UHGV virus genome: UHGV-0151214
Strand: one strand, 5' to 3'
Origin: a virus
Length of the DNA stretch: 12,009 bases
Positions 1 to 12,009 of this stretch are shown piece after piece. The notes under the pieces are model-generated. The model searched no databases and was not told the origin of the DNA. It saw nothing but the letters and a program-made list of their open reading frames with translations. Made by a program: the position numbers and the translations under genes. How positions within the stretch are numbered: the first letter of the stretch is position 1; each line of letters opens with the position of its first letter.

Positions 1-1488
1 GACCCTTATGCGCAAGCTGGAGAAACAATTGGCGGGTATTTAGTTCCAGGAGTTGGAACGGCAGGAAGCATGGCTATAGGATCACTGGCAGAAGCCGCAA
101 ACCAGAAAGGCGATTTCGCGCAAAATGCAGCCATAAACGCCGGAGTTAACCTTGCCGCTCAGGGTGTTCTTTCCGCAGCAGCAAAGGGAATAGGGCGTGG
201 AATAACGGCTATAAAAGGCGATATCGCGCCAGAAGTAGCGAAAAAAATTGCCACCTCAGAATCGATGGGCGTGACACCTATGACATCTGATGTTATCCAG
301 CCGAAAAATGCTTTCACTCGCGGTCTTACTCAGGATGCCGAGGGGGCTTTGCTCGGGACAGGCTCAAAGCGAGCGGAGCAATATGCAACGCGTAGTAAGT
401 TGGTAAGTAATTATTTTGACCGTTTTGGTGAGTACAACCCGGATGATGTGGTGAAATCTCTGACCACCACGTTAAGGGGACGGAAGGATGCCGCTGGCGC
501 TGTTATCAATGACGTCACCAATAAAATGGGTAATGCCGCAGTTGATACCACAAATACCATGAATGCTCTGAATACAGCGATCGCAAGACAGGAACGGCTT
601 GGGACGTCTGCCAATCAAAGCCTGCTTACATCCTTGCGTAACCTACGTGAAGAATTAGCAAACCCTGCAACTGATTTGGATGTTACGTTTGATCTCTTGC
701 GTCAGCACAGAACAGCATTTAGATCTAATGTTCAGGGAGATGCTATGGTCTTCCCCAACCAGGCAAAAGCAGCTACCAATATGGTAGAGAATGCAATGTC
801 AAAAGACCTTCGTAACGCAGTTGCTAAAAACCTCGGTGCATCAGACGCAGCAAAATACCTTAAAGCAAATTCCGATTATGCAAACGTTTATAATAAGGTG
901 CTTAATAAAAACATTGCTAACAAACTCAACAAGGCAAGCAGTGAAGCCAGTCCTGAACTTATAAATACCGTTGTATTAAGCAGAAAACCATCTGACGTGA
1001 AACGAATCTGGAGCGCACTGGATGATAAAGGGAAAGATGCTATGCGTGCAGCTTACGTCAGCAAAATAGCGGAAAAGGCCGGTGACTCTCCAGCCAAGTT
1101 CATCACTGAAGTTAATAAGCTGAAATCTCAGTCAGGCGGTGAAATTTACAACACTATTTTTTCTGGAAAGCACATGAAAGAACTTGATGCTCTTCATGAA
1201 GTTCTACAGCAAACAGCAAGGTCAGACACCGCAAATGTAGTAACTCAGACGGGGCAATCGCAAGCCAACAGGATAAGGACGATTGGCGCAACTGCGACTC
1301 TTGGCGTATCAATGGGGCTTGAGGCTGGTTTCGGTGCAATGATGCGCTTGTATGAATCCAAAGCAGCAAGGAATGCTCTCTTACGCTTGGCAAACACCAA
1401 AGCAGGAACACCAGCCTATGAAAGAGCGCTAAATAATGCTGCGAATGCCATCAGACCGCTGTTTGCTACTGAGGCAACACAGCAGTGA
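1..1488 (+). CDS. DNA ejection (injection) protein, P22 gp16-like, 5'-partial; the reading frame is open from base 1 so the true start is upstream of the window
   Basis: Frame 1 has no stop from position 1 to TGA at 1486-1488 (at least 495 codons in window). The product is Ala/Asn/Lys-rich and low-complexity, typical of P22-type ejection proteins. It sits immediately upstream of an mnt/arc/ant region and tailspike, where P22 has gene 16. Assignment is by composition and synteny only. Confidence 0.55.
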
Positions 1489-1505: not shown

Positions 1506-1955
1506 CTATTTTTTAGTGTAATAATCATCAAAATCGCAAGAAACAGATATCACAAAACCTGAAGTCATAGAAAAAGACAGGGTTTCACATGCCTTTCCGG
1601 CTTGATGGTATGCATTGATGCCACCGTATACGGATTCTCTTGATGAAAACAATGATTTTTCACCGTTTTTTTCTACAAGAATATGCCCATCTGAATCATT
1701 AATAAACCAAACAGAAATAGAGGAGCTTTCGCCAAGGAATGTTCTGTTGAATACCATGGGTGATTTACCCTTGACAACATTTTCTGCGCGCATAATCAGC
1801 TCAGCATTTTTTTTGCTATTTTTTTGTTCTGTATAGATTTTGTCTGCCACAAAATAAACAATGGCAATGGCTAACAAAGATAGGGAAATCAGCAATGCCT
1901 TTTTAATCAATTTTTTTGCATCCCTGTAAATCTCAACTGATAATTTTTCACTCAC
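1506..1955 (-). CDS. Hypothetical membrane-anchored protein (one N-terminal TM helix, about 110-aa C-terminal domain); candidate superinfection-exclusion protein by position (SieA-like locus)
   Basis: Minus-strand ORF with likely GTG start at 1953-1955, preceded by a perfect AAGGAGG Shine-Dalgarno (plus 1961-1967) at 5-nt spacing. Hydrophobic segment ALLISLSLLAIAIVYFVA follows a Lys-rich N-terminus. The longer 221-aa version in the ORF track would overlap the divergent gene and lacks an RBS. It occupies the slot between gene 16 and mnt where P22 carries sieA. Confidence 0.55.
   Translation of the reverse strand: MSEKLSVEIYRDAKKLIKKALLISLSLLAIAIVYFVADKIYTEQKNSKKNAELIMRAENVVKGKSPMVFNRTFLGESSSISVWFINDSDGHILVEKNGEKSLFSSRESVYGGINAYHQAGKACETLSFSMTSGFVISVSCDFDDYYTKK
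1916..1944 (+). promoter_or_regulatory. Candidate sigma70 promoter for the 1986..2351 gene (TTGCAT, 17-bp spacer, GATAAT)
   Basis: TTGCAT at 1916-1921, a 17-bp spacer, GATAAT at 1939-1944, about 40 nt upstream of ATG 1986. It overlaps the 5' end of the divergent minus-strand gene. Motif match only. Confidence 0.3.
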
Positions 1956-1985
1956 ACCAACCTCCTTAGTTTTGCGCAGGATACC

Positions 1986-2351
1986 ATGAAAAAAGTTAAC
2001 ATTGGAAACGTACCAAAGATGCTCGTTCCGCTCTTTGAGAGCGGTACAATTGTGTTTTGTAGAGACTTTCCAGAATGGCAACGCCTGCATCAAAAACTTG
2101 GCGTTGACGTGCATGACTCGGACGCCAACGGAGCGTCTCATACAATGAGTAGCGAGAATGGTGTTTTGCATGTGATAGGCGTGTTCAATGGCAAACTATC
2201 TACTATTGCCCATGAGTGCGCTCACATGGCATTCGATATCTGCTCAAGGGTAGGTGTTGATGTTGAACCAGGAAGAGCCAACGAGACTTACTGCTACTTA
2301 ATGAGCAGGCTTGTTGAGTTCTGCGAGCGACATATCAAAAAGCCGGAGTGA
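1986..2351 (+). CDS. Small (121 aa) hypothetical protein with an HExxH motif (TIAHECAHMAF); possible minimal zincin-like metallopeptidase fold
   Basis: ATG at 1986 with AGGA 4-5 nt upstream; clean 121-codon ORF. The HExxH sits in a predicted helical context with Glu residues 14-20 aa downstream as possible third ligand. No family recognised by eye. Confidence 0.6.
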   Translation: MKKVNIGNVPKMLVPLFESGTIVFCRDFPEWQRLHQKLGVDVHDSDANGASHTMSSENGVLHVIGVFNGKLSTIAHECAHMAFDICSRVGVDVEPGRANETYCYLMSRLVEFCERHIKKPE

Positions 2352-2410
2352 ACCGGCTTGATTATTACTTTTTGCTGTCTGGAGTTCGCTTATCCAATAC
2401 CCAGCCATGA

Positions 2411-2647
2411 CCTGGCTTTTTAGCAACTGCAGATCGCACAATCAATGTTCCATTCCACGGAACAAATCTCTTTTTGGTCAGCATTAACAATGAACCTTAC
2501 GTTCCTATGAAACCCGTTGTAGAAGGCATGGGTATGGTTTGGGCTGCTCAATTTGTTAAATTAAAACAGAGAGTTGTCAAAGGTATTTCGGAAATCGAAA
2601 TACCTTCTGCTGGCGGCGCAGGCTGCACCAAAAAAGAAACCAATTAA
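2411..2647 (+). pseudogene. Remnant of an antirepressor (Ant-like) N-terminal domain; no ATG start at the homologous N-terminus
   Basis: Frame open from stop TGA (2408-2410) to TAA (2645-2647). Translation TINVPFHGTNLFLVSINNEPYVPMKPVVEGMGMVWAAQFVKLKQ aligns with residues about 11-55 of the intact Ant encoded at 3960..4862 ([45 protein letters not shown]). Similarity ends after KLKQ and the frame terminates about 25 codons later. Confidence 0.55.
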
Positions 2648-2690
2648 TATATTTTTCATTTTGATTCCAAATAGTTATAGGATGAAAGTT

Positions 2691-2876
2691 ATGACCATAG
2701 AAGAACGCCTGAACAACATTGAGTTGAATCAAACCCTGCTTGACCAGCGACTTTCAGATCTTGAGCTTAAAGATCTAGATGCGCAAATATTAGAAGCAGA
2801 AGCCAAGCTCTCCAGCTTAAACCACCGTAAGAAGCAAATCCGCAATAGAATTACTCAGGGACGCGGAAGCCGTTGA
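2691..2876 (+). CDS. Small hypothetical coiled-coil protein (61 aa; alternative start ATG 2682)
   Basis: ATG at 2691 with AGGA (2679-2682) 8 nt upstream. Product MTIEERLNNIELNQTLLDQRLSDLELKDLDAQILEAEAKL... has heptad-like Leu spacing and a basic C-terminus. The TTG-initiated 100-aa version in the track overlaps the ant remnant and is less likely. Confidence 0.4.
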   Translation: MTIEERLNNIELNQTLLDQRLSDLELKDLDAQILEAEAKLSSLNHRKKQIRNRITQGRGSR

Positions 2877-2885
2877 AATCCTAGT

Positions 2886-3203
2886 CTATTTTTTCTCAGA
2901 GCTCATATTGTAATAGGTGGTATAAATAGAGATTGATTTCTGACATGCTTCAAGAAATTGCTGCGGAGTCATCCCAAGCCTTGCTTGCTCTGTAGTAAGG
3001 AATCTCTGTAAGAATTCATTCCCACCTGGCATGTTTGTAGATTCTTGGAATATTGCCATTTGTTTGATTGCACCACACATACCAGCCATTTTCGAAGCTA
3101 TCATGAGGCCTTGTATTTCATCAAAACTGCTATCGTCTGATTTTGTTTCTGCGTTAGCTATGCTCGAGAGACACAGGAGCAATAGGATAGCGATGCGTTT
3201 CAT
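2886..3203 (-). CDS. Small secreted (periplasmic) protein, 105 aa, with cleavable signal peptide and two Cys in the mature part; co-transcribed and translationally coupled with mnt
   Basis: Minus-strand ATG (3203-3201) overlaps the mnt stop (3202-3200) as ATGA. N-terminus MKRIAILLLLCLSSIANA-ETK is a classic Sec signal peptide with an AxA cleavage site. Two Cys in the mature part could form a periplasmic disulfide. Confidence 0.6.
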   Translation of the reverse strand: MKRIAILLLLCLSSIANAETKSDDSSFDEIQGLMIASKMAGMCGAIKQMAIFQESTNMPGGNEFLQRFLTTEQARLGMTPQQFLEACQKSISIYTTYYNMSSEKK

Positions 3204-3451
3204 TTTTCACCGTTGCCATGCATACATTTTAACTTCTCAACCTCATGCTCAAGCTCTATCAACCGCGATGCTATAGTTGCAATATCTAGTGCTTGAATAT
3301 GTTTATTTTTTTCAGTCCATGCCTCAAGTGCTGCTACCATCTCAGCATTTAATGAACGAGAATTAGCCTCAGCCAGCTCAATAAGACGTTCCTTTATCTC
3401 TACAGGAAGCCTCAGATTCACTTGAGGGTTTTTGTACTTACGATCAGACAT
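3200..3451 (-). CDS. mnt: Mnt-like ribbon-helix-helix repressor (83 aa)
   Basis: NLRLPVEIKERLIELAEANSRSLNAEMVAAL matches the P22 Mnt N-terminal RHH region (NFRMPMEVREKLKFRAEANGRSMNSELLQIV, from memory). Same length as P22 Mnt (83 aa) and divergent from the arc-ant operon as in P22 immI. AGGA SD 8 nt upstream on the minus strand. Confidence 0.85.
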   Translation of the reverse strand: MSDRKYKNPQVNLRLPVEIKERLIELAEANSRSLNAEMVAALEAWTEKNKHIQALDIATIASRLIELEHEVEKLKCMHGNGEK

Positions 3452-3488
3452 CGGCGCATCCTGAATAATTATTTACCACAGGATATGT

Positions 3489-3537
3489 AGGTATCTATTG
3501 ACTATCAATGCGTACCTAAATACTATGTATGCGTACC
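3489..3537. promoter_or_regulatory. Divergent promoter/operator region between mnt and arc: candidate rightward promoter (TTGACT, 17-bp spacer, TACTAT), an overlapping 29-bp imperfect dyad, and two 9-bp direct repeats
   Basis: -35 TTGACT at 3498-3503, a 17-bp spacer, -10 TACTAT at 3521-3526, about 30 nt upstream of arc ATG 3557. Dyad AGGTATCTATTGACTATCAATGCGTACCT (3489-3517) matches its reverse complement at 20 of 29 positions and is centred on the -35. ATGCGTACC occurs at 3508-3516 and 3529-3537 (21-bp period). Confidence 0.45.
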
Positions 3538-3556
3538 ACATACAGCGGAGGATGCA

Positions 3557-3697
3557 ATGAAGGTAAAAACACTGCGTATGCCAGAGAAGTTAGAAAAAAT
3601 CCTTGAAGAGAAAGCAAAGGAAGAGTGTCGCTCATTTAGCGCAGAAGTAATTAAACGGGTGTTGGACAGCCTGAAAAGAGAGGGGATAACAGTATGA
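3557..3697 (+). CDS. arc: Arc-like ribbon-helix-helix repressor (46 aa)
   Basis: [46 protein letters not shown] aligns with P22 Arc (…RWPREVLDLVRKVAEENGRSVNSEIYQRVMESFKKEG, from memory). GGAGGA SD upstream of ATG 3557. Below the ORF-track size cut-off, found by manual translation. Confidence 0.8.
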   Translation: MKVKTLRMPEKLEKILEEKAKEECRSFSAEVIKRVLDSLKREGITV

Positions 3698-3897
3698 GTA
3701 AAGAATGTTGTTTCTGCGGCATTAGCGAATCAGACGCTGATCAAACATACATTTACTCTAAAGAAACAGGTCGGATGCTGTGTAGTGACTGCGTGTTGGA
3801 CATCATAAGATACAAGCATCTTGGATGTTCTGCCAGCATTAGCAATATAGGTGAAGTATACGAAGGGAAAGATATAACTGATAGAGCAGAAAGTTGA
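3694..3897 (+). CDS. Hypothetical small Cys-rich protein (67 aa; possible zinc-ribbon-like), translationally coupled to arc
   Basis: ATG 3694 overlaps the arc stop (3695-3697) as ATGA. Cys at positions 5, 6, 8, 30, 33 and 45 (CCFC … CSDC … C). It lies between arc and ant where P22, as remembered, has a short intercistronic region. Coding status uncertain. Confidence 0.4.
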
Positions 3898-3959
3898 AGC
3901 CCCAACTGCGGGAACAGTCAGGGCTTCGGTTGTCAGTAAATCCGTGGAGAAAAACCAAC

Positions 3960-4862
3960 ATGAATAGTATAGCAATTTTAGAAGCAGTGAACACCTCTTA
4001 CGTACCATTCAACGGTCAGCAAATTATCACCGCCATGGCTGCCGGAGTTGCATATGTTGCGATGAAGCCAATCGTTGAAAACCTTGGAATGAGCTGGTCA
4101 ACGCAGCAAACAAAACTCATGAAGCAGATTAGCAAATTCAACTGTGTTCATATGAACATGGTTGCCGCTGATGGGAAGCTTCGTAAGTTACTCTGCCTTC
4201 CTTTGAAGAAGTTAAATGGATGGCTGTTCAGCATCAACCCTGAGAAAGTTCGTGCTGACATCCGCGATAAACTGATTCAGTACCAGGAAGAATGCTTTAC
4301 TGTGCTGCATGACTACTGGACAAAGGGAAAGGCAGAAAATGCACGTAAGAAAACATCTGTTGATGACAGGACTCCGCTTCGTGATGCTGTAAATATGCTG
4401 GTCAGCAAAAAGCATCTAATGTACCCAGAAGCTTATGCAATGATTCATCAGCGTTTCAATGTGGAAAGTATTGAAGAGCTTGATGCATCTCAGATACCGC
4501 AAGCCGTAGAGTACATCCACAGGGTAGTGCTTGAAGGTGAGTTCATCGGCAAACAAGAAGAGTTACCAGCGCCGAAACTGGATATTAACTTCCCGATTTC
4601 ATGGTTTGCTGAAAATGCACCTTACGCCATTATCAGGCAGCAATGCGGTGATACTGTTGCTCTTGACCGCAGCGCACTCGTTGAATGCAGTCCGGCGTAT
4701 AAACTAATCGATATTCTGACAAAAGCGGGGTATGACGTTTCAGCAGTAAGAGCCGAGCTAAAAGCACTTCGCCATTTAATGGCTGAGCAAAGCTGGGCAC
4801 TTAAAGAGATAGCTTCATTCGCAGCGATACGTGATAGAGCGTGCCACTCAATTAAACTTTAA
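3960..4862 (+). CDS. ant: Antirepressor Ant (300 aa), P22 Ant-like
   Basis: Downstream of arc in the same orientation. ATG 3960 preceded by GGAG; 300 aa, the same length as P22 Ant. Its N-terminal domain is duplicated as a remnant at 2411..2647. The track's upstream start at 3894 overlaps the preceding ORF and lacks an SD. Confidence 0.8.
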
Positions 4863-4902
4863 CTACCTGCACGAAAAGTGTAGGTCAATAACCAACGCAA
4901 CG

Positions 4903-4927
4903 ACCCAGCTTCGGCTGGGTTTTTTTT
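4903..4927 (+). terminator. Rho-independent terminator downstream of ant
   Basis: Stem ACCCAGC / GCTGGGT with loop TTCG, followed by a T8 tract (4920-4927). Confidence 0.7.
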
Positions 4928-4985
4928 ATGCCCAAAATTCACCGTAGCCATGCTGCGGCCATTCCTTGTATCTGGAGCAAATTAA

Positions 4986-7928
4986 ATGACAGACATTACA
5001 GCCAATGTTGTAGTGAGTATGCCATCGCAACTCTTCACTATGGCACGTTCTTTTAAAGCCGTAGCCAATGGAAAAATTTATATCGGTAAAATTGACACTG
5101 ACCCGGTAAATCCTGAAAACCAGATTCAGGTTTGTGTAGAGAACGAAGACGGTTCTCACGTTCCTGTTTCGCAACCAATCATTATTAACGCTGCTGGTTA
5201 TCCGGTATACAACGGACAGATTGCCAAGTTTGTAACCGTGCAAGGCCATTCTATGGCTGTTTACGATGCTTATGGGGCGCAGCAGTTCTATTTTCCTAAT
5301 GTGCTGAAGTATGATCCTGATCAGTTACGGCAGCAATTAGAAGACCCAGATGGAGCGAATAAATACCCAAAACTTCAGATAGCAAGATGGAGAGACAGTT
5401 ATGATGTAAGAGGTTGGGGGGCTATTGGTGATGGTGTTCATGATGATACATCAGCTCTATCAGAATTACTTTCTGTTGCAACAGGTGGTGAAAAGATAGA
5501 TGGGCGAGGGCTTACTTTTAAAGTATCAACTCTTCCAGATGTCAGTCGATTTAAAAATGCTCGTTTTTTATTTGAGAGAATACCGGGTCAGCCTCTTTTT
5601 TATGCTTCTGAAGATTTTATCCAGGGAGAGTTATTTAAAATTACAGATACACCGTGGTACAACGCCTGGACGCAGGATAAAACGTTTGTATATGACAATG
5701 TCATCTATGCGCCTTTTATGGCTGGAGACCGCCATGGTGTAAATAACCTCCATGTTGCATGGGTTCGCTCAGGAGATGACGGGAAGACCTGGACAACGCC
5801 GGAATGGCTTACAGATTTACATGAAAACTATCCCACAGTTAACTATCACTGCATGAGTATGGGGGTTGTCAGAAATCGCCTTTTTGCTGTAATTGAGACG
5901 CGGACCGTGAGCGGAAATAAACTGCAGGTTGCAGAGTTGTGGGATCGCCCAATGAGTCGCAGCCTTCGCGTTTATGGTGGTATAACGAAAGCAGCAAATC
6001 AGCAAGTCGCTTATATTCGCATTACTGATCACGGATTATTTGCTGGTGATTTTGTCAACTTCTCAAACTCTGGTGTTACAGGTGTTACCGGGAATATGAC
6101 GGTGACTACTGTTATTGATAAAAATACCTTTACAGTTACGACGCAAAATACCCAGGATGTGGATCAGAATAACGAGGGTAGATACTGGAGTTTTGGTACA
6201 TCATTTCACTCGTCACCATGGAGAAAAACCAGTCTTGGAACTATTCCTTCTTTTGTTGACGGAAGCACTCCTGTTACTGAGATTCACAGTTTTGCGACGA
6301 TTAGCGATAACAGTTTTGCTGTTGGCTACCATAATGGTGATATTGGTCCACGCGAGCTTGGGATACTCTATTTCTCTGATGCTTTCGGTTCTCCTGGTAG
6401 CTTTGTTCGCAGACGCATACCTGTAGAATATGAGGCGAATGCATCTGAGCCATGTGTAAAATATTATGATGGCATTCTGTATCTGACGACCAGGGGGACA
6501 TTAAGTACTCAACCCGGTAGTTCATTGCACAGAAGCTCTGATTTAGGTACATCATGGAATTCTCTTCGCTTCCCAAATAATGTTCATCACTCAAACCTTC
6601 CTTTTGCCAAAGTTGGCGATGAGCTGATTATTTTTGGCAGTGAGCGCGCATTTGGTGAGTGGGAAGGAGGAGAACCTGATAACCGTTATGCAGGAAATTA
6701 TCCAAGAACATTTATGACCAGAGTTAACGTCAATGGGTGGAGTCTGGATAATGTAGAGTGGGTTAATGTTACTGATCAGATTTATCAGGGCGGAATAGTT
6801 AACTCTGCGGTTGGTGTTGGTTCAGTTTGTATCAAAGACAACTGGCTGTACTACATTTTCGGTGGGGAAGACTTTCTAAACCCATGGAGCATAGGGGATA
6901 ACAACAGAAAATATCCTTATGTTCACGATGGTCACCCGGCTGATTTGTATTGTTTCAGGGTGAAAATTAAACAGGAAGAATTTGTTTCAAGGGATTTTGT
7001 CTACGGAGCCACTCCTAACAGAACGCTTCCTACTTTTATGTCGACGTCAGGCGTGAGGACGGTTCCTGTACCCGTTGATTTCACAGATGATGTTGCCGTC
7101 CAGTCACTGACTGTCCATGCAGGTACATCAGGACAAGTTCGCGCGGAAGTCAAACTTGAGGGTAATTACGCCATTATTGCGAAGAAAGTACCGTCTGATG
7201 ATGTTACCGCTCAGAGATTAATCGTTAGCGGCGGTGAAACAACGTCTTCAGCAGATGGTGCAATGATAACGTTGCATGGTTCCGGAAGCAGTACTCCACG
7301 TCGCGCGGTATATAACGCACTCGAACATCTTTTTGAGAACGGAGATGTTAAACCTTATCTTGATAATGTAAATGCTCTTGGTGGTCCGGGAAACAGGTTC
7401 TCGACAGTTTATCTTGGCTCCAATCCTGTGGTTACCAGTGACGGAACATTAAAGACAGAGCCGGTCTCTCCTGACGAAGCATTGCTGGATGCCTGGGGTG
7501 ACGTCAGGTATATCGCTTATAAATGGCTGAACGCTGTCGCTATAAAGGGGGAAGAAGGGGCGAGGATACATCATGGTGTAATCGCGCAGCAACTTCGTGA
7601 TGTTCTTATTTCTCACGGACTCATGGAAGAAGAAAGCACAACATGCCGCTATGCCTTTCTTTGCTATGACGATTATCCCGCAGTATATGATGACGTCATT
7701 ACTGGCCAAAGGGAAATGCCGCTGACTGATAATGACGGGAGCATCATTGTTGATGAGGATGATAATCCAGTGATGGTAATGGAAGACATCATTGAGCGCG
7801 TTGAAATAACGCCAGCAGGATCTAGATGGGGGGTCAGACCTGATCTCTTATTCTATATCGAGGCAGCATGGCAGCGCAGAGAAATGGATAAGATAAAAGA
7901 GCGGGTTCAGTCTCTGGAAGAACGTTAA
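4986..7928 (+). CDS. Tailspike protein (980 aa): P22-type head-binding N-terminal domain, sialidase-like catalytic region with two Asp-boxes (probable endosialidase, GH58-like), and C-terminal self-cleaving chaperone domain (peptidase S74-like)
   Basis: N-terminal about 110 aa ([11 protein letters not shown]…[22 protein letters not shown]…VLKYDPDQ) closely matches the P22 gp9 head-binding domain. Asp-boxes SGDDGKTW (aa 262-269, nt 5769-5792) and SSDLGTSW (aa 517-524, nt 6534-6557). [15 protein letters not shown] motif is also present. The C-terminus has S-DGTLK (Ser818 at nt 7437-7439) and [11 protein letters not shown], resembling the autoproteolytic chaperone domain of endosialidases and tail fibres. 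Confidence 0.85.
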
Positions 7929-7954
7929 AAAAAAGCCCGCAAAATATTGCGGGC
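7927..7954. terminator. Hairpin terminator at the tailspike 3' end; the U-tract is on the minus-strand side, so it is stronger for leftward transcription
   Basis: A8 run (7927-7934), then stem GCCCGCAA (7935-7942), loop AATA, stem TTGCGGGC (7947-7954). On the minus strand this reads hairpin plus T8. On the plus strand the hairpin is followed by ATCAAAAACGG. Confidence 0.5.
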
Positions 7955-8234
7955 ATCAAAAACGGAGTTGGTGAAAAGTTATCTTTGAATTCTATCATGA
8001 ATCAGTACGTATTTTAAATACATGTTCAGGTTTATTACACCATAGCATTATTAAATACAAAATTAAGTCTATGGTTCCTGTACAACTGCCCCCACTCTGC
8101 TGGCTCGTTCTGTAAAATCATTAGTACTTTTATTGAGATATATGATATGGAACAATAATGATTCATATATGGTTTACTATGCGGGTTTAGTCATCAATAA
8201 TTGACTGGCTTATAGATAGTAAACAGGAGAAAGT

Positions 8235-8639
8235 ATGTCTGCTCAAGTAACAAGTGAGCAATTAAATCAGTTGCTTAGTTTTGGTTCTCTTGCTGCAGTT
8301 ATTGCAGGTGTCCCTCCGGAGGTTGCTTTAGGGGCTTTGGCTGGGGCGGTAATTTTTGTTACCTCTGCAGTAGAGTACCCTATCCGTCGCCGGGTGCTCC
8401 TGTCGATGCTCAGCTTTCTTTGCGGCCTTCTCTTTTACAAACCAGCAGCATCAATTCTTATCGGCATAGCCAGCCTGATCCCTACCATCACGCAGGACTC
8501 TTTTGAAAAAGGGATTGTTTTCTCTGCAGGCGCATTCGTGTCAGCAATTGTCGCTGTGCGTATTGGTATATGGCTCTATCACCGTTCCGATAATCCACGC
8601 GAGTTAATTCCGGGGAGAAAAGACGATGGTAACGCATGA
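8235..8639 (+). CDS. Holin-like or antiholin-like membrane protein (134 aa, about 4 hydrophobic segments, charged C-terminal tail)
   Basis: ATG 8235 with AGGAG 7 nt upstream. Multiple TM-length hydrophobic stretches and a charged C-terminus ([19 protein letters not shown]). First gene of a cluster with a second holin-like gene, endolysin and spanins. Confidence 0.5.
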   Translation: MSAQVTSEQLNQLLSFGSLAAVIAGVPPEVALGALAGAVIFVTSAVEYPIRRRVLLSMLSFLCGLLFYKPAASILIGIASLIPTITQDSFEKGIVFSAGAFVSAIVAVRIGIWLYHRSDNPRELIPGRKDDGNA

Positions 8640-8934
8640 GTTTTTTTTGCTTATCACTAATGCAGTTATTTGCACTGGCATAGCAATTCGCGTTGTCACA
8701 TTCCGGCGTAACGGCTCTCAACATCGAAGGTGGGGAGGATGGCTTGCTTATTTCCTGATTGTTGCTGCGGCCAGTATTCCTGTTCGAGTCGCCTATGCAA
8801 TCTGGTTACGTACGCCAATGGCTGTGGATTTATCTGAGGTCATTATCAACGCTGTCATGCTGGCTGCGGTTATTAAAACGCGCGGTAACGTCGTTCAAAT
8901 TTTTAAAGTATCGAGGTCTAAACATGGAGATTAA
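8626..8934 (+). CDS. Putative holin (102 aa, 3 TM segments, basic C-terminal tail)
   Basis: Three hydrophobic segments and C-terminal [19 protein letters not shown]. Overlaps the preceding gene by 14 nt and the endolysin start by 11 nt. Confidence 0.6.
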
Positions 8935-9553
8935 ACAATTCCAGCGAGCTGCTGGTATCAGCGAGGCACTGGCCGCACGCTGGTTCTCGCATATAACTTC
9001 TGCGATGAAAGAGTTTGGTATCAGCAAAGCAGAAGATCAGGCAATGTTTATTGCTCAAGTCGGGCATGAGTCTGGGGGCTTCACCAGGTTGCAGGAGAAT
9101 TTCAACTACAGTGTCAGCGGACTGGCTAACTTCGTTCGGGCTGGGCGTCTCACTCAGGGGCAGGCTAATGCACTGGGGCGCCGTGCTGGTGAACCACCAT
9201 TGCCACTTGAGCGCCAGCGCGCGATCGCAAATCTGGTATACAGCAAACGCATGGGGAACAATGCCCCTGGTGATGGCTGGAATTACCGAGGGCGCGGACT
9301 TATCCAGATTACCGGTTTGAATAACTATCGTGATTGCGGAAACGGTCTGAAGGTTGACCTGCTGGAGAGCCCTGAACTGCTGGCGCAGGACGAATATGCG
9401 GCTCGTAGCGCGGCGTGGTTCTTCGCCAGCAAAGGATGCATGAAGTATACCGGCGATATTGCACGTGTAACTCTGATTATCAATGGTGGCCGGAACGGCA
9501 TCGACGACCGGCGAGCGCGGTACATCACTGCCAGTAAGGTGCTGGCGGTATGA
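8924..9553 (+). CDS. Endolysin, glycoside hydrolase family 19 (chitinase-like phage lysozyme), 209 aa
   Basis: GH19 signatures [12 protein letters not shown] (catalytic Glu in HES), a second Glu in LQENFNY, and [19 protein letters not shown] 8924 preceded by GAGG. The track's longer version from 8759 reads through the holin in a frame with no lysozyme similarity. Confidence 0.85.
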
Positions 9554-10032
9554 TCTGGGCATTCGTAAAAGCATACTGGAAACAGTTTCTTATCGTGGCA
9601 GTGCTTGCTGTTCTGGTCATATCAGGAGTGGTTGCCTGGAATATACACGGCAGTCGCCAGTACGATGCCGGGTATGCTCAGGCGGAAGAAGACCGCAAAG
9701 CCGAAGAAGACAAAGTTCGTCAGTACTACGAACAGGAGAAAGTGACCAATGAACGTGAAGCTCAGCAGAGGATCGACCAGGCGCGCAATGATGCTCTTGA
9801 TGCTGCCGCTAGCGCTGGCCGGTTGCAGCAACAACTCTTTGCCATCCGTGAGCAGCTCAGGCAGTATAACGCCATTGTCGGCGCTGGGTCGTCAGCCGCA
9901 GACACCGGAGTTTTGCTTGCCGACGTGCTCAGCAAATCTCTCGAGAGAAACAGACAACTGGCAGAGTATGCTGACCGGGCAGCCGAAGCCGGAAGAGTCT
10001 GCGAAAAACAGTACGACACTTTGACCAGATAG
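9550..10032 (+). CDS. i-spanin (Rz-like inner-membrane spanin subunit), 160 aa
   Basis: ATGA overlap with the endolysin stop. N-terminal TM ([18 protein letters not shown]), a long charged coiled-coil periplasmic region, and a Cys near the C-terminus. Sits immediately after the endolysin and contains an embedded lipoprotein ORF. Confidence 0.75.
9788..10024 (+). CDS. o-spanin (Rz1-like outer-membrane lipoprotein), embedded in the +1 frame of the i-spanin gene
   Basis: [13 protein letters not shown] has a lipobox (LAGC) and a signal-peptidase II site. The mature part is about 58 aa, Ser/Pro-rich with additional Cys. It lies entirely within 9550..10032 in another frame. Start taken at ATG 9788; the track's 9749 start adds an unlikely N-terminal extension. 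Confidence 0.65.
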   Translation: MMLLMLPLALAGCSNNSLPSVSSSGSITPLSALGRQPQTPEFCLPTCSANLSRETDNWQSMLTGQPKPEESAKNSTTL

Positions 10033-10184
10033 CATGGCATTTTTCATGGTACTGATTTCCGGTGACGGTATATAAAACGGTACGGGAAAAATTGAGATTT
10101 GGAAAAATGTTATCACTCAATTGGTTATGGTTATCGTAAATAATTGAGTGGAATGATTTGACCCTGCACTATGAATGAACAAAA

Positions 10185-10210
10185 CCCTCTGTTACTACAG
10201 AGGGTTTTTT
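10185..10210. terminator. Bidirectional rho-independent terminator between the lysis cassette (+) and the convergent minus-strand operon
   Basis: Stem CCCTCTGT (10185-10192), loop TACT, stem ACAGAGGG (10197-10204), then T6 (10205-10210). Preceded by AAAA, so it is usable from both strands. Confidence 0.7.
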
Positions 10211-10248: not shown

Positions 10249-10788
10249 TTAGTTAAACCAGCTGTCCGATTTGTTCTCTTCTGCTTTGCCCACGCTTTTC
10301 ATCAGATCTCGACCGCCCTCAGTCATATTCCTGTTTGCGTCAGCTTCAGATTGCACCACATCGGTTTGCGCAGCTTTGTGCTTCAGTTCCTGATCGATAA
10401 ATTCGTTTTCTCGCTTAACGCGGGCTTCTTCTTTCGCCAGCGCCAGTTTTTGTTTCTGAATCTCTAAGCTGCGTAGCTCATCTTCATAACTTTGATCGCG
10501 TTTTTTGTCCGCAGAGGCTTCGGCGTCCAGTTTATCCTGACGAGCTTTCTTATTTGCCGCTGCCGTTGCCGCTCTTTTGTTAGCGGCGGCCTGGGCGTTT
10601 GCGCGACGTTGCTTCTCTTGCTGGATTTCCCTGTTGCGCTCCGCGACCCATTCGTCATGCTGCCTTTGCTCTTCATTTTTACCTTGCTGTTCCGCTTCTG
10701 CGACAGCAGAGAGTTGATCCTGCAATGATGAGGCGATAGCCGGATAGCTTAAGGAGGCTAAGATGGCGCAAAGAAAAACTTTCTTCAT
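10249..10788 (-). CDS. Secreted Lys/Glu/Ala/Gln-rich (coiled-coil-like) periplasmic protein, 179 aa, with signal peptide
   Basis: Strong GGAGGAG SD upstream of the minus-strand ATG. N-terminus MKKVFLCAILASLSYPAIA-SS is a Sec signal peptide. The rest is highly charged and helical (…QQEKQRRANAQAAANKRAATAAANKKARQDKLDAEASADKKRD…). Lies 16 bp downstream of the lipoprotein gene on the same strand, so probably an operon. Confidence 0.6.
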   Translation of the reverse strand: MKKVFLCAILASLSYPAIASSLQDQLSAVAEAEQQGKNEEQRQHDEWVAERNREIQQEKQRRANAQAAANKRAATAAANKKARQDKLDAEASADKKRDQSYEDELRSLEIQKQKLALAKEEARVKRENEFIDQELKHKAAQTDVVQSEADANRNMTEGGRDLMKSVGKAEENKSDSWFN

Positions 10789-10803: not shown

Positions 10804-11322
10804 TTAGCTCTTTTCAGGACATTTGGTATTTGGCTGAATACGCGTTTCGTTATACGTCGTGGTAATAACAACGGCTAAACCTGTCGTAAACTGGCACTCT
10901 TTACCCACCTGGGTGGAGGTATACACTTTGGTGCCTTCCTTATACGTTAGAGAAACACCTTCCACTAAGGTTTTATCATTCACCATAGAACCCGCTGCCG
11001 CGCCAACAGCTCCGCCGCCAACTGCACCTGCCGTCGTTCCGGAATTGCTGCCAGACCCGACGTTGTGGCCAATAACACCGCCAGCGACTGCACCAATAAG
11101 CGCGCCGAAGGCTTGTGCGTTTCGTTTATTTTGGGAGTTGTCTACGGCAACTTTTGCGGGAAGAATGGAAATAATATTAACGGTTTTAGTTTCTTGTTTG
11201 GTATTCAGTTGATCGGTTTGATAAACATCGGCGGCATGATCATCAGCATTTGACTGGCATCCTGCCAGAGTGAATGACGCTAACATTGCCACAGGCAGAA
11301 GACATTTTTTAAATTTCATCAC
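10804..11322 (-). CDS. Outer-membrane lipoprotein with glycine-zipper region (SlyB/Pcp/YcfJ-like family), 172 aa
   Basis: Lipobox FTLAGC after a signal peptide. Gly-zipper segment GALIGAVAGGVIGHNVGSG…AGAVGGGAVGAAAG resembles the glycine-zipper motif of YcfJ/SlyB-type lipoproteins (recalled, not searched). AAGGA SD 7 nt upstream. The upstream region 11323-11510 is strongly AT-rich. Confidence 0.65.
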   Translation of the reverse strand: MMKFKKCLLPVAMLASFTLAGCQSNADDHAADVYQTDQLNTKQETKTVNIISILPAKVAVDNSQNKRNAQAFGALIGAVAGGVIGHNVGSGSNSGTTAGAVGGGAVGAAAGSMVNDKTLVEGVSLTYKEGTKVYTSTQVGKECQFTTGLAVVITTTYNETRIQPNTKCPEKS

Positions 11323-11632: not shown

Positions 11633-11806
11633 CTAACGTTGTACCGGTGATTCGACGGAGAGTGTGGATTGCTGAGCTTCTTTTTTGCTCTGATGGTGCT
11701 GCCATGCACCGACGGACGAGTAGATAAAACGGCCAAAGAAGAAGATAAAGCTGATGAGCAGTACGATACGGGTCATGCGACTGTTAAATCGGTGTCGTTT
11801 TCGCAT
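11633..11806 (-). CDS. Possible small membrane protein (57 aa from ATG 11806; alternative start ATG 11776)
   Basis: Minus-strand ORF encoding MRKRHRFNSRMTRIVLLISFIFFFGRFIYSSVGAWQHHQ… with one clear TM segment. The track start is GTG with no convincing SD. Coding status uncertain. Confidence 0.2.
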   Translation of the reverse strand: MRKRHRFNSRMTRIVLLISFIFFFGRFIYSSVGAWQHHQSKKEAQQSTLSVESPVQR

Positions 11807-12009
11807 ACTGGTTGCCTGACTCACAAAAGGTTCCTTGATGTATGTCCCACGCTGTGGACGGTACTTACATTAAGGCACAACAGGACAAAATGGTCAATTC
11901 TTCGTTATGTAAAAAAGCGTCAGTGGATACATATTTTAATGTTATGGAAGTTAATTTAATTATTTACAATGATGATGTAATAATGATGAATTAACATGAT
12001 AAACGTAAT

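Follow-up and report, generated by a model that had tools for sequence, protein, structure and literature searches.

The open reading frame (ORF) at positions 4986..7928 (+ strand) of a 12,009-nt viral metagenome sequence, hereafter the window, very probably encodes the precursor of a CUS-3-type, K1-capsule-specific endosialidase tailspike that would operate by the mechanism proposed below. The window corresponds to contig positions 1-12009 of NODE_69 in ENA metagenome assembly ERZ773421, a short-read contig at 12.9x coverage, and the exact 980-aa sequence was found in one metagenome contig only. The ORF has the domain content of such a tailspike, conserves every residue named below and is 98-99% identical to characterised or deposited genes; by analogy with these homologues, the protein would be expected to be enzymatically active, to cleave itself and to dock onto a virion. 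Genes of this type are already on record, and this one is ordinary; the unusual point is its join, possibly artefactual, to a second prophage type.

The gene begins at an ATG codon preceded by a GGAG ribosome-binding site recognised from the sequence (4974..4977, +; 8 nt 5' of the ATG), and specifies 980 aa with a mass of 109.1 kDa, the same ORF and length as given in an earlier note on this DNA. Terminator scoring identified an intrinsic-terminator-like hairpin followed by a T-run between ant and the tailspike gene (4902..4929, +; 8-bp stem with five GC pairs, T8 tail). Just 3' of the stop codon lies a GC-rich hairpin, GCCCGCAAAATATTGCGGGC (7935..7954, no strand assigned), which scores as a minus-strand terminator because of an A8 run upstream.

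Six Pfam domains were recovered in the ORF, five of them matched over the whole profile and the sixth, Peptidase_S74, over 1-57 of 58 positions; PHROG tail-spike families also matched. The P22-type head-binding domain, for virion attachment, occupies aa 1-113 (4986..5324, +; PF09008 1-113/113, E=6.5e-66), which bears out the suggestion that the first ∼110 aa are P22 gp9-like. It is 97.3% identical to that of CUS-3, and its PDB matches are to P22, Sf6 and related tailspike N-domains (E-values of 1e-44 to 7e-64), including 1LKT, 2XC1 (P22) and 7SG7 (a 623-aa chain named 'Gene 14 protein'). A linker in the gap between Pfam domains (aa 114-145; 5325..5420, +; 96.9-100% identical to CUS-3 and 720R6) leads to the endosialidase N-terminal extension (aa 146-212; 5421..5621, +; PF12218 1-67/67, E=8.9e-37) and then to the six-bladed beta-propeller catalytic domain (aa 213-662; 5622..6971, +; PF12217 1-367/367, E=1.2e-232), into which a polySia-binding beta-barrel is inserted (aa 324-406; 5955..6203, +; PF12195 1-83/83, E=1.2e-46). 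The triple beta-helix (tail-spike) stalk follows (aa 663-817; 6972..7436, +; PF12219 1-160/160, E=7.5e-78); it contains the Arg804 folding sensor and ends at Thr817. The C-terminal intramolecular chaperone, or Peptidase_S74 domain, comprises aa 818-980 (7437..7925, +; 18.7 kDa; PF13884, 3GW6).

The earlier note had read the central region as a sialidase-like depolymerase and had made that reading depend on sialidase homologues and a six-bladed propeller. The top homologues are endosialidases, the endo-N-acetylneuraminidases of CAZy family GH58, with the endoNF crystal structures 1V0E and 3GVL matching at E=0 across aa 145-817, and the propeller profile is covered from end to end. The propeller is 69.3% identical to the K1F endoNF crystal structure; at 69% identity to solved structures the fold can be taken as settled, and it rests on this homology because single-sequence AlphaFold2 prediction of aa 146-817 yielded no usable model (pLDDT 32.3, pTM 0.24). 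All of the catalytic residues listed for K1F endoNF (PMC12632334) are conserved in the alignment, with H350, R549, E581, R596 and R647 corresponding to H250 (codon 5733-5735), R456 (6351-6353), E488 (6447-6449), R503 (6492-6494) and R554 (6645-6647), all on the + strand. Motif searching recovered exactly two Asp-boxes, as previously counted, SGDDGKTW (aa 262-269; 5769..5792, +) and SSDLGTSW (aa 517-524; 6534..6557, +); a relaxed pattern gave none further, and the chance expectation from composition-matched shuffles is 0.007 per protein. The GenBank record of CUS-3 siaK1 refers to a direct assay (PMID 16689790) as evidence of endo-alpha-sialidase activity, and the same activity is to be expected of the present protein at 98% identity to SiaK1.

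A GDGxxDDT motif, which the earlier note associated with beta-helix polysaccharide-degrading domains, had left some doubt as to the substrate. The motif is present, as GDGVHDDT (aa 148-155; 5427-5450, +), and is the one feature favouring a beta-helix (pectate-lyase-like) depolymerase that acts on another polysaccharide. However, it lies within the N-terminal extension (Pfam End_N_terminal), where it aligns with GDGVTDDT of the endoNF crystal structures, and a Pfam search of the ORF to E<=1 returned no pectate-lyase or beta-helix family (e.g. Pectate_lyase_3), so that the doubt over the substrate is removed. Given this placement and alignment, together with the full-profile matches of propeller, barrel and stalk and the retention of all endoNF active-site residues, the beta-helix interpretation was rejected at the sequence level and is exceedingly improbable.

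Both chaperone signatures proposed previously (S-DGxLK and GxIAQQ) were located in the C-terminal region by motif search and residue mapping, as SDGTLK with the Ser818-Lys823 dyad (aa 818-823; 7437-7454, +) and as GVIAQQ with Gly864 (aa 864-869; 7575-7592, +), and the domain predicted to be released, at 163 aa, agrees with the 'roughly 160' aa proposed. The Peptidase_S74 match (PF13884, 1.6e-10) covers aa 818-878; among solved structures, that of the endoNF chaperone (3GW6) aligns with aa 698-979 at 1.7e-93, and 3GUD matches at 5.5e-08. The dyad, whose role in S74/chaperone domains has been described (PMC3742443), is conserved, S818 and K823 aligning with endoNF S911 and K916; likewise, R804 aligns with R897 and G864 with G956. 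The spacing between R804 and Thr817, 13 residues, equals that between Arg1250 and Thr1263 in T5 (PMC4690869). The position of endoNF N912, reported to be essential (PMC3742443), is occupied here by Asp819; Asp is also found in CUS-3 and ZX5, and the matching residue of MYRF is Asp579 (PMC3742443).

Cleavage had been placed after Ser818, and this required correction: the predicted scissile bond is Thr817|Ser818, so that the cut would fall before Ser818. The prediction follows from the K1F record, where residue 910 is the last of the mature peptide and Ser911 the first of the chaperone, and from T5 pb1, which is cut at Thr1263-Ser1264 so that the serine stays on the released chaperone, 'as for K1F' (PMC4690869). 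The endoNF crystal chains stop at the Thr aligned with Thr817. The predicted products have computed masses of 90.4 kDa (mature protein) and 18.7 kDa (fragment). Autoproteolytic release following trimer folding is predicted by analogy with these systems, and the prediction that S818A would block cleavage stands regardless of the corrected bond.

In the mechanism that we propose, three 109-kDa chains would assemble, with the 163-aa C-terminal chaperone nucleating trimerisation and the folding of the triple-beta-helix stalk. Once the stalk had folded, Arg804 of a neighbouring chain would help to form the oxyanion hole, and the Ser818/Lys823 dyad would then cut Thr817-Ser818, taking off the 18.7-kDa fragment and leaving a 90.4-kDa mature, kinetically stable trimer. 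The head-binding domain (aa 1-113) would dock this trimer onto the tail hub of a P22-like (Lederbergvirus) podovirus. The propeller, through H250, R456, E488, R503 and R554, would hydrolyse internal alpha-2,8 linkages in polysialic acid, the barrel and stalk would provide additional polySia-binding sites, and the three together would open a path for the virion through the K1 capsule.

The P22, Sf6 and HK620 tailspikes attack O-antigen with a right-handed beta-helix enzyme and are not known to have a cleaved chaperone. Their catalytic domains are wholly unlike the CUS-3 endosialidase (review PMC5380687), and P22 chains in the PDB carry the name endorhamnosidase; the likeness of P22 gp9 and related tailspikes to the present protein lies in the homologous head-binding domain described above and in the location of the P22 tailspike gene after ant in the late region, as here. 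K1F endoNF (gp17; PDB 1V0E, 3GVJ-L, 3JU4, 3GW6) has the same catalytic, stalk and chaperone modules and shares the two Asp-boxes, the active-site residues, the Ser-Lys dyad and the processing site, at identities of 57.7% overall, 69% in the propeller and 51% in the chaperone. It differs in its T7-type N-terminal domain, in Asn912 (Asp819 here) and by indels of 7 aa in the propeller region and 8 aa in the chaperone.

The architecture had been likened to that of CUS-3 SiaK1 (ABQ88383.1, CP000711; Stummeyer et al. 2006, PMID 16689790), and the comparison holds for the protein, which has the same head-binding, endosialidase and chaperone arrangement and is 98.0% identical (98.6% at the nucleotide level over gene nt 1-2914), as well as for the mnt/arc/ant genes upstream. 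It does not hold for the 3' end of the gene and beyond. SiaK1 has 981 aa rather than 980, its last 14 aa are unlike those encoded here and the 3' 43 nt are identical at only 20/43 positions; furthermore, 28 nt differ within the first 291 nt of the gene. Downstream, CUS-3 has neuO, int and argW, whereas the window has holins, a GH19 endolysin, spanins and guaA/yfgI. The closest deposited protein is the tail fibre protein of the Lederbergvirus vB_EcoP-720R6 (URC09763.1; 98.6% aa identity, 99.0% nucleotide identity of the gene), whose linker, N-extension and stalk are identical to those of the window protein. It differs in having a CUS-3-like C-terminal 14 aa and at C50Y, V59I, A98T, G454D and G584E, and its flanks are a different mosaic, on the bio operon side. 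Private to the window are one SNP in the cassette described below (gene nt 1751, G584; Glu in CUS-3, 720R6 and ZX5, Asn in K1F) and one head-domain substitution (C50; Tyr in CUS-3 and 720R6).

The third relative, the tailspike of Uetakevirus vB_EcoP_ZX5 (QTH80017.1), is 99.7% identical from gene nt 522 to the stop codon, and the likeness continues for 306 nt downstream at 99% identity and includes the same lysis cassette and attR. The ZX5 protein is longer (1039 aa), lacks the P22 head-binding domain and has an unrelated N-terminal adaptor (12% identity over aa 1-145), called T7-tail-fibre-like by its authors (PMC9782041). Integration of the ZX5 type at the guaA 3' end is documented (PMC9782041), and prophages matching ZX5 occur at guaA/yfgI in K1 strains such as IHE3034, APEC O18 and N25.

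The two flanks of the gene are accordingly of two types, as the comparisons with CUS-3 and ZX5 have set out. To the left lie P22-like genes for a gp16-family ejection protein (1-1488), Arc (3200-3451 and 3557-3697) and Ant (3960-4862), which place the tailspike gene in a P22-like late-operon position after mnt/arc/ant and ejection genes; to the right lie the holins, one of them at 8235-8639, and the GH19 endolysin, spanins and attR at guaA/yfgI of the Uetakevirus (ZX5-like) K1 prophage type, and the link between the flanks may be an artefact. A Lederbergvirus-type downstream end (neuO-like conversion genes, int and attachment site) was not found, the Uetakevirus-type lysis cassette and attR being there instead, and the window contains neither the neuO heptanucleotide repeat (AAGACTC)n, which follows siaK1 in CUS-3, nor a tRNA gene. 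Comparison of Lederbergvirus-type (L-type) and Uetakevirus-type (U-type) genes delimited a 2.4-kb endosialidase cassette (5507..7885, +) that is 99.7% identical to both L-type (CUS-3, 720R6) and U-type (ZX5, N25) genes. The remaining 3' end, encoding the last 14 aa (7886..7928, +), is U-type, with 43/43 positions identical to N25, 42/43 to ZX5 and 20/43 to CUS-3. Only three type-informative sites precede it (gene nt 552, 603 and 927, all L-type; none from 928 to 2900), so that the switch from L-type to U-type, somewhere within 5913-7885, can be confined only to a ∼2-kb interval.

Among 5,426 complete E. coli genomes, 194 contained the cassette (>=99% identity), at 263 places in all, and many of these 194 are from named K1, ExPEC or APEC strains; the U-type gene was carried by 72 of the 5,426. 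In APEC O18, both cassette copies lie in the same orientation, ∼166 kb apart. L- and U-type K1 prophages thus have a 2.4-kb endosialidase cassette that is nearly the same in both, and the two often share a chromosome. The L-left/U-right join, by comparison, was absent from all 5,426 complete genomes, where the best places all begin at gene nt 522, and from 66 IMG/VR loci, where the genes that were complete and typed at both ends with DNA probes were either L/L (18) or U/U (20). No second example of an L-head/U-tail hybrid was found in INPHARED phage records, and none of the 40 members read of a 3,581-member protein cluster combined an L head with a U tail. Since the combination was found nowhere else, the precise allele may be a product of assembly; a join unseen elsewhere, on a short-read contig at 12.9x, points to a rare recombinant or else to a 2.4-kb repeat that was threaded wrongly.

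We give an even chance to an assembly chimera, in which the assembler passed from P22-like DNA into the shared cassette and came out of it into Uetakevirus DNA. This supposes an E. coli in the sample with two prophages, one of CUS-3 type (at argW) and one K1 prophage of Uetakevirus type (at guaA/yfgI), and such co-residence is common, as the 263 places in 194 genomes and the paired copies of APEC O18 attest. The short-read origin and coverage of NODE_69 favour it, as do the mere 5.5 kb of P22-like DNA before the contig ends, the location of the switch in ∼2 kb that lacks informative sites and is 99.7% identical to both types, the absence of the join from the complete genomes, and the uniformly L/L or U/U state of the IMG/VR genes complete and typed at both ends and of the full-length cluster members listed. 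However, assemblers usually break at the cassette repeat, as seen in 2.3-kb cassette-sized contigs (P0010, P0013) and in IMG/VR contigs ending at aa 232-240, whereas the window contig runs through, and its three 5' informative sites are consistently L-type with a single clean switch. Were the contig chimeric, the assignment to this protein family would still stand, and the error would be confined to the 14 C-terminal aa and the genomic context.

That the join is real, having arisen by homologous recombination through the cassette between co-resident K1 prophages, is given a chance just short of even. Unequal exchange between 2.4-kb direct repeats of 99.7% identity, available in strains such as APEC O18, would yield exactly an L-left/U-right junction, in this case the novel junction of a ∼166-kb tandem duplication of the argW to guaA interval. 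Alternatively, the product may be a hybrid Lederbergvirus with the Uetakevirus lysis, attP and int end, sitting at guaA/yfgI; as the tailspike is near attP and int in both phage types, two crossovers could give a viable hybrid. The contig is unbroken, with an intact reading frame and one clean switch, but it is a low-coverage short-read contig that ends 5.5 kb to the left, and the join went unseen in the complete genomes, IMG/VR loci and cluster members listed. It is put forward tentatively, and with some doubt, that the contig is accurate and records ongoing recombination between two temperate podovirus lineages of one K1 strain, a CUS-3-like Lederbergvirus (argW) and a ZX5-like Uetakevirus (guaA). 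If so, its product would be the ∼166-kb duplication junction or a hybrid phage with virion genes of P22 type and a lysis and integration end of Uetakevirus type.

The gene might also be an intact yet idle relic of a defective prophage that no longer makes virion tailspikes, which we consider unlikely. Of the prophage, no more than the right-hand 10 kb can be seen, IS3 or intron insertions occur next to or within the gene in IAI39, CE10 and FY26, and partial copies are found in the complete genomes N58, MS20673 and N63. Against this, the ORF is full-length with a ribosome-binding site and no frameshift, the neighbouring late and lysis genes are intact, and only the G584 and C50 changes are private to the window.

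As an endosialidase tailspike, the gene predicts that the phage receptor is the K1 polysialic acid capsule and makes a K1 strain the probable host, the capsule being a virulence factor in neonatal-meningitis and avian pathogenic E. coli. These predictions are textbook for CUS-3-type prophages. What goes beyond the known is only the cassette common to Lederbergvirus-type and Uetakevirus-type K1 prophages, which is both a recombination substrate and a trap for short-read assemblers; where tailspike 'chimeras' are annotated from metagenome contigs, the joins need to be checked against the reads.

The tailspike ORF (window 4986–7928, plus strand) begins with ATG, encodes 980 aa, and carries a GGAG ribosome-binding site 8 nt upstream; a terminator-like hairpin (4902–4921), with a T-run in addition, lies between it and the antirepressor gene ant. 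These coordinates and every motif of the earlier note were recovered from the window sequence. A motif scan placed Asp-boxes at aa 262 (SGDDGKTW) and aa 517 (SSDLGTSW), GDGVHDDT at aa 148, SDGTLK at aa 818 and GVIAQQ at aa 864. A relaxed pattern yielded no additional Asp-boxes in the protein, so the earlier count of exactly two stands, and the pair exceeds chance since composition-matched shuffles gave 0.007 Asp-boxes per protein.

Pfam returned a complete series of domains, without overlaps apart from an inserted barrel: Head_binding (aa 1–113, E = 6.5e-66), End_N_terminal (146–212, 8.9e-37), End_beta_propel (213–662, 1.2e-232, profile positions 1–367 of 367) with End_beta_barrel inserted at 324–406 (1.2e-46), End_tail_spike (663–817, 7.5e-78) and Peptidase_S74 (818–878, 1.6e-10). 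Structure matches (aa 1–127 to solved N-domains of P22-type tailspikes; aa 145–817 to the phage K1F endosialidase endoNF, including 1V0E and 3GVL, E = 0; aa 698–979 to the endoNF stalk-plus-chaperone structure 3GW6, 1.7e-93) and PHROG families were consistent with this series, bearing out the proposed fusion of a P22 head-binding domain, an endosialidase and an S74 chaperone. In an alignment with K1F gp17, the endoNF catalytic residues H350, R549, E581, R596 and R647 (PMC12632334) were all identical, corresponding to H250, R456, E488, R503 and R554. The earlier note had read the GDGxxDDT motif as a hint of a beta-helix domain that left the substrate uncertain. We rejected this reading and the doubt is removed, because the motif lies in the endosialidase N-terminal extension, where it aligns with GDGVTDDT of endoNF, and Pfam found no beta-helix family in the protein.

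The gene is of a type already known, as the earlier note correctly recognized, given its near-identity to characterized relatives, its wide occurrence and the published fusion of a P22 head-binding domain to an endosialidase in CUS-3 (reviewed in PMC5380687). Nucleotide identity was 98.6% to siaK1 of prophage CUS-3, whose GenBank record cites direct-assay evidence for endo-alpha-sialidase activity, and 99.0% to the tail-fibre gene of Lederbergvirus vB_EcoP-720R6; protein identities were 98.0% (CUS-3), 98.6% (720R6) and 57.7% (K1F). The central 2.3 kb occurred at ≥99% identity in 263 places within 194 of 5,426 complete E. coli genomes, many of them named K1, ExPEC or APEC strains. Two residues are private to the window: Cys at aa 50 (5133–5135), which is Tyr in CUS-3 and 720R6 and presumably also in P22 gp9, and Gly at aa 584 (6735–6737), where CUS-3, 720R6 and ZX5 have Glu and K1F has Asn. 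Each may reflect natural variation or an error in an assembly of 13x coverage. Elsewhere, two viral contigs of IMG/VR 3300045988 (L057 and L062) encode an endosialidase that shares only 86% identity. Its C-terminus resembles that of K1F (...RLSALEQK) and its N-terminal region is of a third type, making it a further adaptor variant of the endosialidase cassette.

The self-cleavage residues of endoNF were likewise conserved in the K1F gp17 alignment (S911 = S818, K916 = K823, R897 = R804, G956 = G864). The predicted scissile bond is Thr817|Ser818, based on three observations: in K1F record AM084414 codons 2–910 are given as the mature peptide and the chaperone begins at codon 911, the Thr aligned to Thr817 is the last residue of the endoNF crystal chains, and T5 pb1 is cut at Thr1263-Ser1264, the serine leaving with the chaperone as in the K1F tailspike (PMC4690869). 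The signatures of an autocleavage site at Ser818 were thus present as proposed, but the cut is expected before rather than after this residue, and would convert a 109.1-kDa precursor into a 90.4-kDa mature protein and an 18.7-kDa released domain (computed masses). The suggestion that S818A should block cleavage is sound. With this correction and that to the GDG motif, both small, the original observation is confirmed and its interpretation supported.

What the sequence shows directly is the order of the domains, the conserved residues, the near-identity to a characterized enzyme and the P22-like context upstream. By analogy with homologues (PMC3742443, PMC4690869, PMC12632334, and the K1F and CUS-3 records), the chaperone domain would drive trimerization and triple-beta-helix folding and then release itself via a Ser-Lys dyad; the head-binding domain would dock the trimer to a P22-like tail, and the propeller would cleave alpha-2,8-polysialic acid held by the barrel and stalk.

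DNA upstream of 5507 is P22-like, through the head-binding domain. It opens with a gene for a P22 gp16-family DNA ejection/transfer protein (1–1488, plus strand; phrog_770, 3e-216; no Pfam match), of which only the 3' portion is present because the source contig starts within it. Next comes a moron-like, low-GC (0.36–0.41) run of small ORFs (1506–3203), none with a Pfam match: a 149-aa ORF with an apparent hydrophobic segment by eye and no PHROG match (1506–1955, minus), a 121-aa ORF with a HECAH (HExxH) motif (1986–2351, plus; phrog_1365, function unknown), a small ORF (2691–2876, plus; phrog_7586) and a 105-aa ORF with a putative N-terminal signal peptide by eye (2886–3203, minus; phrog_19844). 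The last overlaps by 4 nt the Arc/Mnt-family repressor gene (3200–3451, minus), which begins a P22 immI-like region (3200–4862) continuing with a second Arc-like ORF (3557–3697, plus), a Cys-rich 67-aa ORF (3694–3897, plus; phrog_7150) and the antirepressor Ant (3960–4862, plus; P22_AR_N). The region combines known pieces in a new mosaic. The left 5.5 kb was not covered to at least 80% in one place by any complete E. coli genome; the best reached 66%, in four pieces.

Window positions 5507–10158 share 99.6% identity with Uetakevirus vB_EcoP_ZX5. A perfect 8-bp GC-rich hairpin (7935–7954) directly follows the tailspike stop codon and scores as a terminator on the minus strand only, because its A8 run lies on the 5' side. 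Beyond a low-GC (0.38) intergenic stretch (7929–8234) lies a Uetakevirus-type lysis cassette (8235–10032) of two holins (8235–8639, 8626–8934), a GH19 endolysin (8924–9553) and an Rz-like i-spanin (9550–10032), in which an embedded +1-frame ORF (9749–10024), with LALAGC resembling a lipoprotein lipobox, is presumably an Rz1-like o-spanin. Homology to ZX5 stops at 10158, probably the attR of the guaA 3'-end site, where ZX5 integration has been shown experimentally (PMC9782041). A terminator-like hairpin (about 10184–10210) and host genes yfgI (10249–10788), yfgH (10804–11319) and yfgG (11633–11824), all three on the minus strand, follow; the stretch up to 12009 matches K1-strain prophages between guaA and yfgI.

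The Uetakevirus-type tailspike (U-type) has 1039 aa and an unrelated N-terminal adaptor. Across gene nt 522–2900, genes of Lederbergvirus type (L-type) and U-type share 99.7% identity with the window and also between themselves. After nt 2900, CUS-3 matches the window at 20/43 nt and U-type strain N25 at 43/43, and the window remains U-type into the lysis cassette and attR; the CUS-3 neuO repeat is absent from it. Only three sites within the shared endosialidase cassette are type-informative (nt 552, 603 and 927). Since the window is L-type at all three and U-type at its gene's 3' end, one L-to-U switch lies within 5913–7885.

The exact tailspike protein is recorded from a single contig, NODE_69 of ENA metagenome assembly ERZ773421 (54 kb, 12.9x coverage), of which the window forms the first 12 kb. 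An L-type head with a U-type end occurred in none of the 5,426 complete E. coli genomes, and the best genome places for a 3.7-kb query spanning both junctions all began at gene nt 522. Among 66 IMG/VR loci, complete genes typed at both ends were all L/L or U/U (18 and 20 with DNA probes); further IMG/VR checks found no L-head with a U-tail, and full-length members listed from a 3,581-member protein cluster paired like ends with like. Hosts carrying both prophage types are common (263 cassette places in 194 genomes). APEC O18 (locus L007, NZ_CP006830.1 1462233–1476513; genome matches H37/H166) carries two endosialidase genes as direct repeats ∼166 kb apart, a CUS-3-type copy at argW, adjoining an acyltransferase gene, intS and a tRNA-Arg gene, and a Uetakevirus-type copy at guaA/yfgI.

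An assembly mis-threaded through the shared cassette would yield an L-left, U-right path, as would a genuine join, whether a hybrid phage or a novel junction left by a tandem duplication; we regard artefact and real join as about equally likely. One point speaks against an artefact: short-read assemblies usually break at the shared endosialidase cassette, giving ∼2.3-kb fragment contigs that consist of it or contigs ending at aa 232–240 (examples among cluster members P0010, P0013 and P0015 and IMG/VR loci L064–L068), yet NODE_69 is unbroken. The cassette thus routinely breaks short-read assemblies, and many public drafts hold the gene in pieces only. We give slightly less than an even chance to a real recombination event between K1 prophages of two lineages sharing a host; if true, this would be of modest interest. 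Whichever reading of the join holds, the functional assignment is the same, because the difference is limited to the last 14 residues of a domain shed once folding is complete and to the neighbours of the gene.
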